Origin: a virus
Lineage: Duplodnaviria > Heunggongvirae > Uroviricota > Caudoviricetes
IMG/VR virus record: IMGVR_UViG_2529293040_000015
Length of the DNA: 17,201 bases
Reading direction: 5' to 3' (one strand)
Positions 6,001-9,000 of the stretch are shown here, one piece after another. The stretch's first letter is position 1, and each line of letters opens with the position of its first letter. Position numbers: made by a program.

Positions 6001-9000
6001 ATCTTCTGAATTTTTAACAAACACACCTTCTTCTGGCTTATCCAGTATAATTGGGCATCGAACCGCCTCGGATGGGCACTGAAGGCTCTGCGTATTAACC
6101 GAAAACTTATATTGTGATATTTTCCCCTCAATATCACCATGTGATTGTGTGTTACCTGAACCTGAAACCATTCTTAACATTATATCCCTGAGCGCTTCAG
6201 GACCACCATTAAGCCCTGTAAGTAATAATCCAGAAAGCAAACTGTTATTGCCCCCACTCGCCAGAAAGCGACCATCCGTTTCACTATATGTGATACTAAC
6301 CGTCTGTCCGCCTACTGTAATTTCTCCACCACCACTGGCGGCCATTTGAGCACGAAGAACCTGCATTCCGATGGAAAGTGAGGATGATTGAATACCTGAA
6401 ACTAATGATGGCATGACAAAACTCCCTATTTAAATATTCATTCCAAACACAGGGAGTCATAACAAACATCACCATGGCATGACAACAAAAACCGGAGCCG
6501 GACTCCGGTTTTTTTGTGAACCCGTCGGCTATTTCATCCCGCCAATATTTTCCCACGTCCCGTCAGCACGCAGGATTTGCAGCGGTCTTACCACACACTG
6601 TATCTGCTTTTTATCTGCATCCAGTATCACCACCTGCGTGATTACCCTGGCCTGCTCCGGAATAATACCATTCTCATCTGACTCCAGGATGTCTGCCGGC
6701 CCCAGACGCAGTTGTGCTGTAAGTAACTCCCCGTGTTCACGGTCATCATGCTTTCCGTACCCGCACAGACGCTGCATAAGTTTTTTTAGTACGTTCATGT
6801 CATTCTCCTGTTCTGCCTGTATCACTGCCCACTTCATCCAGCCCCTTAACATCCTGCCACGGCCCGTCACCAAACCTGACCTGCAAATGCTGAAAAAAAC
6901 CCTGAACCTGTGTGGCATCTTTGGGGTCAAGAAAGGTCAGTCCGGTGATGAGTGCGCCATCTGTACCCGGGAACCAGCCATTGCTGTTTGTCTCAATAAT
7001 GCTCGCCGGCCCCAGACGAAAACGGATTTGTGTCTCCCCCGGGTCGCCCTTTGGTCCCTGAGGTCCGGTTGCCCCCACCGGGCCAGCCGCACCTGTTTCT
7101 CCTTTCGGTCCCTGTGGGCCTGCCGGACCTGCCGCACCGGTATCTCCCTTTGGACCCTGTGGACCTGCATTTCCCGTCAGACCGGTCTCTCCCCGCTCTC
7201 CCCTGTCGCCTTTCGGCCCCTGCGGGCCTGCCGGACCAGCATCACCTGCCGGTCCCCGCTCACCGGTTGCCCCGACAGGACCGGTGTCGCCACGCTCTCC
7301 TTTATCTCCCTTCGGCCCCTGAGGACCCGCGGGCCCCGGTTCTCCCTTTGGCCCGGGAGGTCCCACCACGGTGGGGATTCGGTTTACGGCGTCTTCCGCC
7401 GCTATCCTGCTTTGTTCCGCTGACTGTGCGCTTTCTGCTGACTCCCGGGCTTTTTCTGCTGCGGTCGTTGCATCCCTGGATGCATTACCGGCTGCACTTT
7501 CTGCCGTCTTTCTTGACAATTCAGCTTCTGCTGCACTTTGTGATGACTCACTGGCTTTTTGAGCGGCCGCAGAAGCCGAGGACGAGGACGCATCCTCTGA
7601 CTGCTTTGCTGAGGCTGCACTTTCCGTCGCCTGCCGGGCTGACTCCGATGCATCCCCTGCAGAAGTCTCAGCATTTACTGCACTCTTTTCCGCCTGGCCG
7701 GCTGATATACCCGCATTCCTCGCTGACGTCTCTGCCTCTCCGGCATTCTTCTTCGCCTCCTCAGCGTGACGCGCTGCCTCTTCCACCATCAGTTCAAAAC
7801 GTCGCAGTGCCTCCGGACGGGCATCATCCTCCGTCATGGCACCGAGAAAATCATTCAGCGTACCGGGTTGAGAATCTTCATACACGGTGATGGTCCCGGC
7901 ATGTGACGGCGGGAATCCCTCCACCAACAGAATAACGCTGTACTGACCGTACTCAACGTCCATACTGTAACGCCCGGCTTCATCCGGATTTTCTGAGGCC
8001 AGCGTGTTCACCACCACAGTGGTACTGTTACGTTTTGCTTTCAGCTGGATTGTGCAGTTCTGTACCGGTTTTCCTGTGCCGTCTTTCAGTACACCTGAAA
8101 TCTTTACTGCCATATTCACCCCACAAAAAAGCCCGCCTGAACCGGCGGGCTGTCATAACACTGTGTTACCTGGCTAATCAGAATTTATAACCGACACCCA
8201 CGATGAAACCGTCAGTGCGCCAGTCACCACTGCCGGAGCCTTCATAAGCAATATCAATGGCCACGGATTCGGTCGGGTTAAACTGCACGCCAGCCCCCCA
8301 CGCCAGAGACGTGTTGCTGTGGCGACCGTCATCACTTCCGGTCAGCACATCGTGCGTTTTCCCCTTGTTGTCAGTTACGCGGAGATAATCCCCGGAGAAA
8401 GTCGACACACGGCTGTAAGCCACACCCGCCATCGCATACGCGCTGAACCATTCATTCACGCGTACAGACGGCCCCGCCATCACGCTGAACCAGCGGTTAC
8501 GCACGGAATCTTCATGCCAGCGGGTATCGCTGTAACGGGTAAGCTGGCGATTCTTGTCTCCTGCATAGCTGAATGACGTCACCAGCCCCAGCGTGTCCGT
8601 AAATTCATAACGGTATTTCACGTTAATCCCGTTAAGATTATCGCTACCGGGAGCGTTCGTCCGGGCATGAAGATACCCCGCGCTCAGTGTGGACTGATGT
8701 TCAGACGCCCATGCAGGCGCACCGGATACGGACAGACAGATGGCTGCGGACAAAATGGCTGCACAAACTTTACGCATAATTACCTCTCGCTTTTCTGCAA
8801 TAAAAAAGGCACCATTTCTGGTGCCCTTATATGGGTTATAACAATTTCAACGAATACTGATGCCGGAAGCGGCTTTTTTGGTCACAATCACCGTACAGTC
8901 GGTGATATTGCCTGCCCACTGATTGCCTTTCTGGAAAATCTTAAACTCCAGAGTGACGCTACCACCACCACTAGGCATATCAATAACTGCACTGTAACTA

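Follow-up and report, generated by a model that had tools for sequence, protein, structure and literature searches.

An EPclA-type side tail fibre and a downstream paralogue of its knob

We analysed a stretch of viral DNA of 17,201 nucleotides, hereafter the window, in which the locus under study forms the distal end of a lambdoid prophage's late operon. The prophage adjoins torT, and the EPEC strain that carries it is close to E2348/69. A side tail fibre gene is followed here by the gene for an 89-residue protein, termed p89, and by a terminator:

6800..8113, minus strand: EPclA-type gene for the side tail fibre, 437 aa and a TGA stop (ORF and translation)
7715..8113, minus strand: PfN, N-terminal collar/attachment domain, fibre residues 1–133 (PF08400)
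7364..7714, minus strand: Ala/Ser/Glu-rich segment (PCoil), fibre residues 134–250 (composition)
7031..7363, minus strand: collagen-like domain, fibre residues 251–361 (regex count, PF01391, 45-nt internal repeat)
6836..7027, minus strand: PfC, C-terminal fibre knob, fibre residues 363–426 (PF06820)
6893..6899, minus strand: T7 run inside the fibre gene, candidate for the 'slippery sequence' of the GenBank KU977420 note (read from the sequence)
6805..6809, minus strand: Shine-Dalgarno AGGAG of p89, within the last fibre codons (read from the sequence)
6529..6798, minus strand: p89, free-standing PfC-domain protein, 89 aa (translation, phrog_576)
6532..6717, minus strand: PfC domain of p89, residues 28–89 (PF06820)
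6484..6513, minus strand: intrinsic terminator closing the fibre-p89 unit (A-tract, 12-bp hairpin, U-tract)

The fibre gene extends from an ATG at position 8113 to a TGA at 6800–6802, and its top PHROG matches, phrog_366 and phrog_3279, are both annotated as 'tail fiber protein'. The original prediction of a lambda Stf-like N-terminal anchor is borne out by a match of PfN to positions 1–133 of the 134 positions of PF08400 (E 7.8e-69) and of residues 1–94 to chain Ta of PDB 9e7m, the collar domain of the Ur-lambda tail fibre (E 9.9e-53; PMC12617516). The linker that had been described as rich in Ala, Ser and Glu is indeed composed of these residues to 62% (A 30%, S 21%, E 12% of 117 aa, as compared to 7% for L, I and V combined), and the estimate of about 37 Gly-X-Y triplets proved to be exact, as the regex count returned 37 triplets without interruption. 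The C-terminal domain matches all 64 positions of PF06820 (E 1.1e-36), a family absent from lambda Stf, and neither PF03406 (Pf2 repeat) nor any other lambda-tip family matched the fibre at E <= 1 in the Pfam search. The window shares with the Stf-Tfa system of lambda a homologous collar domain (PDB 9e7m, E 1e-52) and a late operon that ends in the order J-lom-stf-small gene, whereas shaft and tip of the fibre are unrelated to those of Stf and contain neither a Pf2 repeat nor a gp37-like distal domain.

This domain order identifies the fibre as the EPclA-type side tail fibre of EPEC/EHEC lambdoid prophages, which has already been described. Ghosh et al. 2012 studied the biochemistry of EPclA (EHEC prophage collagen-like protein A; e.g. 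ECs2717, Z0982/ECs0844) and found it, in experiments on ECs2717 only, to be a trimer that contains a genuine collagen triple helix; residues 363–426, that is PfC, were demonstrated to be its trimerisation module (PMC3368898). Hence, the fibre tip is a known domain. The window fibre has the same PfN, a PCoil of ~116 aa, a collagen domain of 111 aa, PfC at 363–426 and a total length of 437 aa (PMC3368898, Table 2), and since architecture and length are shared, it may be expected to form a trimer with a collagen triple helix as well. It differs by allelic substitutions only, with ~94–97% identity to the orthologues compared (413/437 residues or 94.5% for E2348/69; 423/437 or 96.8% for lambda h434 imm21), and in that it is carried by an EPEC prophage in which J is split into three ORFs.

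The coordinates of the downstream gene could be confirmed as predicted: its ATG (6796–6798) is separated from the fibre stop codon by a single nucleotide (6799), and its AGGAG sits 6 nt upstream of the ATG. No further gene separates p89 from the strong terminator (free energy -19.7 kcal/mol, z -3.2), a position that suits late, lytic expression. In contrast to the original prediction, which did not recognise its family, p89 belongs to a known and annotated one and is not new. It matches positions 1–64 of the 64 in PF06820 (E 9.9e-35; 119.2 bits versus a gathering cut-off of 25) and phrog_576 at 89/89 positions (E 3.8e-59), is named 'phage tail fiber C-terminal domain-containing protein' by PGAP, and is the orthologue of ORF68 of phage Sp5 (PMC5155283). 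Its PfC domain is 37% identical to that of the fibre itself (E 2e-11). Accordingly, p89 is an ancient paralogue of the fibre knob, in which a 27-residue N-terminus of its own replaces the collagen. PF06820 was its sole Pfam match, with no Tfa-type or Caudo_TAP similarity, NCBIfam returned no family and a search of Rfam yielded nothing relevant. As compared to lambda Tfa, the downstream protein is therefore a fibre-tip paralogue rather than a Caudo_TAP/Tfa protein. One GenBank record names it tail fiber assembly chaperone, by position alone. Functional data on p89 were not found in a literature search that covered the locus tags and the lambda_2B8 fibre study. A putative metal site (Cys-x-Cys...His...His) in its N-terminus was dropped because position 14 varies between C, Y, H and R and position 22 between H, N and D. 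An AlphaFold2 monomer computed from a 7-sequence alignment reached a pLDDT of 51 and a pTM of 0.29, a quality insufficient for fold searches.

The p89 protein in the window is of the same kind as that known from Sp5 (ORF68, ECs1229), phi24B ('gp59') and AU6Stx1 (atfT), in that it comprises 89 aa with PfC only, is 90–98% identical and starts 1 nt past the stop codon of a collagen fibre. However, these podovirus copies follow a longer fibre of the EPclB type (631–649 aa), a protein that aggregates if produced by itself, whereas in the window the fibre before p89 is EPclA, on a siphovirus-type tail module. Identity of p89 is 89.9–97.8% in functional phages (VT2-Sakai, Min27, BP-4795, P27 and lambda h434), VT2-Sakai marking the lower end with 89.9%.

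Conservation of the junction and co-inheritance of p89 with the fibre tip

Comparison of 83 related loci revealed that the fibre stop codon, the spacer base and the p89 ATG, and thus the 1-nt spacing, are retained in all of them; the end of a PfC domain precedes p89 in 83/83, the AGGAG is kept in 81/83, and the entire junction, GGAGAATGAC followed by ATG, is identical in 80/83. Hence, p89 is well placed for translational coupling to the fibre, as had been proposed, and the junction that would mediate coupling is conserved across loci. Conversely, p89 lies directly downstream of 79 of 80 PfC-ended fibres, and the sole exception carries an IS inserted at the p89 ATG. A copy in Citrobacter rodentium is located within a degraded remnant with a truncated fibre of 161 aa and is not informative on the junction. 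The reading frame is under constraint: dN/dS amounts to 0.105 across 61 alleles, and to 0.041 for the PfC domain of p89, which is almost invariant among 31 distinct proteins, 0.27 for its private N-terminus and 0.195 for the PfC of the fibre. Thus, p89 is a real, conserved and co-inherited gene under strong purifying selection.

The fibre is mosaic, as anticipated, with a lambda-type collar and an unrelated shaft and tip. A block consisting of Col-PfC, p89 and the terminator is common to the siphovirus-type prophage of the window and podovirus AU6Stx1 (94.7% identity), whereas homology ends upstream of the collagen domain and does not include the N-terminal half of the fibre. The collagen tract does vary in length, with 15–38 triplets among 85 distinct full-length fibres, in line with the suggestion of a hotspot, yet 68/85 have 37 triplets. 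Within complete E. coli genomes, p89 was found in 698 of 5426, with a median of 11 copies per positive genome. An HMM scan of 1.84 billion representatives gave 87 matches, nearly all of them Escherichia fragments, so that no deep alignment could be obtained, and a scan of a genome collection yielded only three loci, two of which resemble contamination or mis-binning.

This pattern of inheritance bears on two alternative explanations. For Sp5 ORF68 it has been proposed that the gene is an untranslated or irrelevant 'reservoir cassette', which holds a spare PfC for tip swaps by recombination (PMC5155283). Rare chimeras are consistent with such exchange, namely one in which collagen is joined directly to a p89-type PfC (P0063, four members) and one that combines the p89 N-terminus with a fibre-type PfC (P0121), and a 14-nt stretch (CGTCTGGGGCCGGC) is identical at the domain start of both paralogues. 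However, fibres with a p89-type PfC are vanishingly rare when set against the thousands of standard copies, each of the 83 p89-type domains in the loci compared has a start of its own, and a cassette of this kind would not account for a conserved start codon and Shine-Dalgarno sequence or for selection at the protein level that includes the private N-terminus (dN/dS 0.27). As p89 is moreover translated, to judge from phi24B peptides (see below), we regard this explanation as improbable.

Alternatively, p89 might have no part in fibre assembly and could act as a soluble decoy that is released at lysis and masks receptors on debris, or as a superinfection-exclusion or lysogenic-conversion factor. 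Its position on the border of the effector (moron) region and its dispensability in laboratory assays would fit such roles. However, the terminator of the late operon lies beyond the gene, whose coupling is to the fibre gene rather than to the effectors, and it travels with Col-PfC into podoviruses that have no effector cluster at that position. In addition, no signal peptide or lipobox could be read from the p89 sequence, and none of the PADLOC models was matched by p89 or by the fibre (0 families). A role of this type therefore appears quite improbable.

Translation of p89 and its trace level in phi24B virions

Two p89-specific peptides are present in the phi24B proteome, and at least 6 spectra are attributable to p89 as compared to 2267 for the fibre, which corresponds to ~2% of the value expected for equal stoichiometry. 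Peptides of interest for mass spectrometry are LGPADILESDENGIIPEQ[A/D]R, VITQVVILDADK and ADGTWENIGGMK. Thus, p89 is translated, but it is not a major virion protein, being present at trace level in phi24B. Contamination, or a cap that was bound loosely and came off in the course of purification and six months in storage, could equally explain the trace.

These data raise the question of whether p89 is made as a protein in its own right or as the 3' portion of a longer fibre that arises by recoding. The latter is implied by a note in GenBank record KU977420, which mentions a +1 frameshift and an 'alternate tail fiber tip' and leaves the slippery sequence unspecified; a shift at the T7 run or at the stop codon, where the Shine-Dalgarno sequence is followed by UGA-C, would add a second PfC domain to the fibre. 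Indeed, in 76/83 loci no stop interrupts the p89 frame over the 46 codons upstream of the ATG, the T7 run falls within this overlap, and the authors of the phi24B study were undecided themselves ('Spike or just gp59?'). However, ~30 of 77 loci have GGGGCTGTTTC or similar in place of the T7 run, dN/dS of the bridging frame is 6.2 as compared to 0.14 when the same bases are read in the fibre frame, and the bridging frame is stopped in four loci, one of which (L076) has a demonstrably intact fibre of 440 aa; hence, the run is not a conserved recoding signal. A shift at this site would also break off the first PfC domain midway. At the stop codon, an AGGAG a few nucleotides before a weak UGA-C formally resembles the +1 site of prfB, but the P-site codon GAA would be unable to pair anew in the +1 frame, and evolution shows no sign of a fused product. 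Moreover, the ATG past the stop, which a fusion does not require, is conserved in 83/83 loci, Mondal et al. saw no frameshift signal, and no junction peptide occurs in the part of the phi24B proteome examined. The 'fusion' entry of the phi24B authors outscores the fibre in one sample only, which is a low-mass gel slice. With no conserved slippery site and no coding constraint on the bridging frame, the version that relies on the T run is largely refuted, and we consider production of p89 by frameshifting very improbable.

If p89 is made separately, it could still be a structural component, that is, a trimer stacked on the PfC knob of the fibre as a distal cap or accessory adhesin, which would matter only on natural hosts, e.g. 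those bearing O-antigen. Strict co-inheritance with PfC, a p89 PfC domain that is very strongly conserved and the peptides in purified phi24B virions are all compatible with this idea. Furthermore, dispensability has been assayed on rough K-12 only (PMC5155283), and the binding of the fibre to BamA is now doubted. On the other hand, the spectra of p89 are ~50-fold below a 1:1 expectation with the fibre and close to those of proteins that the phi24B authors treat as contaminants (Lom 23, Q 19), and p89 shows no sign of diversifying selection, which receptor-binding tips usually display. Rotary shadowing revealed, in addition, a normal knob at the C-terminus of recombinant EPclA that had been produced without p89 (PMC3368898). 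A stacked cap is thus an unlikely role for p89.

A proposed trans-acting partner of the fibre knob

In lambda, the slot directly after stf is held by tfa, and the original prediction of a dedicated chaperone or assembly partner places p89 in a comparable role. This part of the prediction is partly contradicted. Recombinant EPclA, Col-PfC and PfC trimerise without p89 (PMC3368898), no Tfa-type similarity exists, and ORF68 of Sp5 is not among the nine genes found to be essential on K-12, in contrast to the fibre gene ORF67, which is essential (PMC5155283). Any assembly role of p89 is therefore dispensable in the laboratory, which sets it apart from the classical factors Tfa, gp38 and gp57A.

The most likely role of p89 is that of a dispensable, trans-acting partner of the fibre knob, and an EPclA fibre accompanied by such a partner is our best explanation of the locus, to which we assign a probability of roughly 45%. 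In this model, the PfN collar domain would dock the fibre on the tail, by analogy with Ur-lambda, the shaft would be built from an Ala/Ser-rich predicted coiled coil together with a triple helix of 37 collagen triplets, and PfC would serve as trimerisation and nucleation knob. Translation of p89 from its own ATG, 1 nt past the fibre stop, would be coupled to that of the fibre, and the product may fold as a PfC-type trimer that acts in trans on the C-terminal end of the fibre during fibre production. In this capacity, p89 would be a dispensable assembly or accessory partner in the slot of tfa, mostly absent from the finished virion, rather than an alternative tip produced by fusion or a cassette kept silent.

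With its small globular end domain that nucleates and stabilises a collagen or fibrous trimer, as observed for PfC (PMC3368898), the fibre resembles proteins carrying the Scl2 V domain, the BclA C-terminal domain or the T4 foldon, although PfC has no sequence relationship to these domains, and no solved structure related to PfC came up when the PDB was searched by sequence and by profile. To our knowledge, none of the three is accompanied by a separately encoded, adjacent paralogue. It is conceivable, if rather doubtful, that p89 represents a distinct class of tail-fibre accessory proteins, i.e. a separately translated knob paralogue that acts in trans on the knob. Such a protein might work in either of two modes: it could template or register the C-to-N folding of the collagen, or provide a detachable second knob that changes binding by the fibre. 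If true, the mechanism would be unlike that of the chaperones Tfa, gp38 and gp57A and of intramolecular chaperone domains.

As regards novelty, the outcome for the window is negative: the gene that seemed unrecognised belongs to a known annotated family, and the fibre type is experimentally characterised. PfC-tipped collagen fibres are nevertheless found on most lambdoid prophages of EHEC and EPEC, including Stx phages and phages that carry type III effectors, and thereby bear on the spread of such virulence genes.

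The fibre and its prophage setting

The window covers the right end of a lambdoid prophage integrated beside torT/torR, with the minus-strand gene order tape-measure protein, M, L, K, I, J, lom, fibre, p89, terminator and type III effector cluster. The features considered here are as follows.

Features of the window around the fibre and p89 genes
10594-12561, 9890-10606 and 8847-9893, minus: J (tail tip/host specificity), split into three overlapping ORFs (span 8847-12561)
8805-8828, minus: terminator-like hairpin in the J/lom gap
8178-8777, minus: lom
8130-8151, minus: terminator-like hairpin in the lom/fibre gap
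6800-8113, minus: fibre gene
6529-6798, minus: p89 gene, encoding an 89-aa protein
2275-6414, minus: type III effector cluster, directly past the p89 terminator, between prophage and torT
5836-6414, minus: nleG-like/DUF1076
4494-5474, minus: nleB2
3441-4460, minus: nleC
2275-2973, minus: nleD

The region is syntenic with the torT-adjacent prophage of EPEC E2348/69 (98.7% identity over 83% of the region length), whose annotation lists nleH and IS remnants at the position of the effector cluster. As J is broken into three ORFs and gpJ of the E2348/69 prophage is likewise annotated 'frameshifted', the prophage is probably defective. Since hairpins lie on both sides of lom, fibre and p89 would need either antiterminated late transcription or an unrecognised promoter for their expression. 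The classical laboratory hybrid lambda h434 imm21 (OM418627, 2686-7900 of the fetched locus) carries the same type of fibre gene with p89, followed by nleB, nleC and nleH gene fragments, and thus the right arm of phage 434 is derived from an effector-carrying prophage.

The fibre ORF extends from the ATG at 8113 to the TGA at 6800-6802 and encodes 437 aa, with the following Pfam domains.

Pfam domains of the fibre
Residues 1-133: PfN (phage_tail_N), PF08400, E 8e-69
Inside residues 251-361: collagen, PF01391, significant
Residues 363-426: PfC (Phage_fiber_C), PF06820, E 1e-36

The original prediction of a lambda Stf-like anchor, an Ala/Ser/Glu-rich linker and about 37 collagen-like triplets was borne out in each part: residues 1-94 match the side-fibre collar domain of Ur-lambda (cryo-EM, PDB 9e7m; E 1e-52), Ala, Ser and Glu make up 62% of residues 134-250, and residues 251-361 form exactly 37 uninterrupted Gly-X-Y triplets. 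In Ur-lambda, twelve such collar domains surround the tail and give rise to four trimeric fibres (PMC12617516). The C-terminal domain is indeed unlike that of lambda, but it matches a known domain, PfC. The whole architecture is an exact match to EPclA, defined by Ghosh et al. 2012 as PfN-PCoil(116)-Col(111)-PfC in 437 aa (PMC3368898), and the window fibre is this published protein. In that study, EPclA was found to be trimeric, with a true collagen triple helix (Tm 42 C) in the Gly-X-Y region and a trimeric coiled coil in the Ala/Ser-rich region; PfC, also residues 363-426, serves as a trimerisation module from which the helix renucleates. Thus, the fibre and its non-lambda C-terminus were already known and characterised.

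The anticipated length variation of the collagen tract is real, albeit modest. Triplet numbers range from 15 to 38 among 85 distinct full-length fibres from the fetched loci, 68 of which have 37, and lengths of 63-144 residues were reported by Ghosh et al. (PMC3368898). A 45-nt internal repeat in the collagen-coding DNA offers a substrate for length change.

p89, a translated gene linked to the fibre knob

The p89 gene starts at an ATG (6796-6798) located 1 nt past the fibre stop and 6 nt downstream of an AGGAG (6805-6809), as originally described. All 83 related loci retain the TGA, the spacer base and the ATG, and 80 of them share an identical junction, GGAGAATGAC|ATG. This confirmed layout and its conservation argue that the arrangement is not a chance ORF. 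Conservation of the ORF in related prophages was also checked and found: across 61 distinct alleles dN/dS is 0.105, with 0.041 for the PfC part of p89 and 0.27 for its private 27-residue N-terminus, and 0.195 for the PfC of the fibre itself. The PfC part is almost invariant across 31 distinct proteins. Moreover, the cryo-EM preprint on phi24B reports, in its proteome supplement, two peptides from purified virions, ADGTWENIGGMK and VITQVVILDADKK, that are specific to the p89 orthologue. Purifying selection, the almost invariant PfC part and these peptides together establish p89 as a real, translated gene.

The family is not an unrecognised one, as had been supposed. Residues 28-89 match PF06820 along the full profile (Pfam, E 1e-34), phrog_576 ('tail fiber protein') covers 89/89 positions, and PGAP names it 'phage tail fiber C-terminal domain-containing protein'. 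BLASTP aligns p89 with the PfC of the fibre (37% identity, E 2e-11). GenBank labels differ: lambda h434 imm21 has it as 'tail fiber assembly chaperone', AU6Stx1 as 'alternate tail fiber tip' with a predicted +1 frameshift, and other records as 'hypothetical' or 'tail fiber protein'. The family is therefore already named, and others have noted p89, deleted it and detected its product.

A PfC end precedes p89 in 83 of 83 p89 genes examined and, conversely, p89 lies directly downstream in 79 of 80 loci picked by the fibre PfC; in the sole exception (L095, 2731-3100) the p89 ATG is the exact insertion point of an IS element. Homology to the podovirus AU6Stx1 (94.7%) begins at the start of the last collagen domain, covers PfC and p89 and ends 51 nt past the p89 stop, terminator included, while the two fibres have unrelated N-terminal halves. 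Hence, Col-PfC-p89-terminator behaves as a single exchangeable module found on two tail types. Of 5426 complete E. coli genomes, 698 carry p89, at 6803 places altogether (median 11 per positive genome), and the family is very narrow, with 87 matches in a scan of 1.84 billion representatives. Sequence and profile searches of the PDB found no solved structure of a PfC/p89 relative. A single clearly distant relative of the domain was found: P0142, a collagen-bearing, phage-fibre-like protein of 565 aa that contains 4-5 units of about 60 aa in tandem, the unit ends (VVVLDAD...ILQVRRADGTWxEIPALKG) matching the C-terminal half of PfC (PF06820, E 1.6e-15). Sequences of p89 and PfC at E. coli-level identity on a Xanthomonas pisi contig (L164, 725 bp) and a Clostridiales MAG contig (L166) most likely reflect contamination or mis-binning.

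A proposed frameshift at the fibre-p89 junction

A +1 frameshift fusing the fibre to p89 could be envisaged, as the 46 codons preceding the p89 ATG contain no stop in the p89 frame, a T7 run lies within the overlap, and AGGAG-N-GAA-UGA-C at the fibre stop superficially resembles the prfB site. However, we consider this very unlikely. In about 30 of 77 loci other bases stand in place of the T run (GGGGCTGTTTC and the like), and a shift at the run would cut the first PfC in half. Over the same bases, dN/dS is 6.2 for the bridging frame versus 0.14 for the fibre frame. The bridging frame is stopped in four loci, for one of which, L076, the fibre was confirmed as intact and full length (440 aa), the confirmation extending to that locus only. 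The p89 ATG is kept in 83/83 loci. The prfB-like site (6799-6809, minus) was rejected as a recoding signal because GAA should be unable to re-pair in the +1 frame, and no frameshift signal was found in Sp5, where the p89 orthologue ORF68 is among the non-essential late genes (PMC5155283). In the phi24B data, the artificial entry 'Fusion_6159' tops the fibre entry in one sample only, a low-mass gel slice (25 vs 24 spectra), consistent with a free ~10-kDa protein, and the examined part of the proteome file contained no fibre-p89 junction peptide.

The UGA-C context of the fibre stop is weak and has AGGAG just upstream, which may favour termination-reinitiation. At L033, a 1-nt deletion upstream of the p89 ATG (GGAG to GAG) sets both genes in one frame; it would create a natural PfC-linker-PfC fusion or could be a sequencing error.

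Possible roles of p89 in fibre morphogenesis

The original prediction also proposed a dedicated chaperone or partner. p89 is a genuine dedicated neighbour, but an obligatory chaperone is argued against: EPclA, Col-PfC and PfC need no co-expressed protein to trimerise (PMC3368898), and Sp5 lacking ORF68 still forms plaques and lysogens on K-12, where the fibre gene is essential (PMC5155283). The evidence on its role is mixed, and p89 may rather be a partner of the knob in assembly or in an accessory function. Its gene is placed for translational coupling, is strictly inherited together with PfC and occupies the slot held by tfa in lambda, and the protein is a homologue of the domain responsible for nucleating the fibre trimer. 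Further, it is nearly absent from finished phi24B virions, with at least 6 spectra versus 2267 for the 649-aa fibre, i.e. ~2% of the 1:1 expectation and in the range of proteins that the authors treat as contaminants. This low abundance also argues against a stoichiometric cap, even though p89 may have been lost in purification or storage and the ORF68 deletion was assayed on a rough host only.

The authors of PMC5155283 speculated that ORF68 is a reservoir sequence. Such a cassette fits poorly with selection at the protein level on the private N-terminus of p89, with its conserved start and SD and actual translation, and with the rarity of swapped tips, cluster P0063 having 4 members versus thousands of standard copies. 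Two types of rare, natural chimeras were observed. In P0063, collagen is joined straight to a p89-type PfC, resembling a deletion between GERGPA... and ...LGPADILE; in P0121, a fibre-type PfC lies behind the p89 N-terminus. The fibre PfC and p89 paralogues have a 14-nt identical stretch in common, CGTCTGGGGCCGGC. An AF2 model of the p89 monomer was poor.

Taken together, the fibre and p89 are themselves already known. As to the function of p89, our best reading, with moderate confidence, is that it is a dispensable protein that would trimerise by itself and may act in trans on the C-terminal end of the fibre during morphogenesis.
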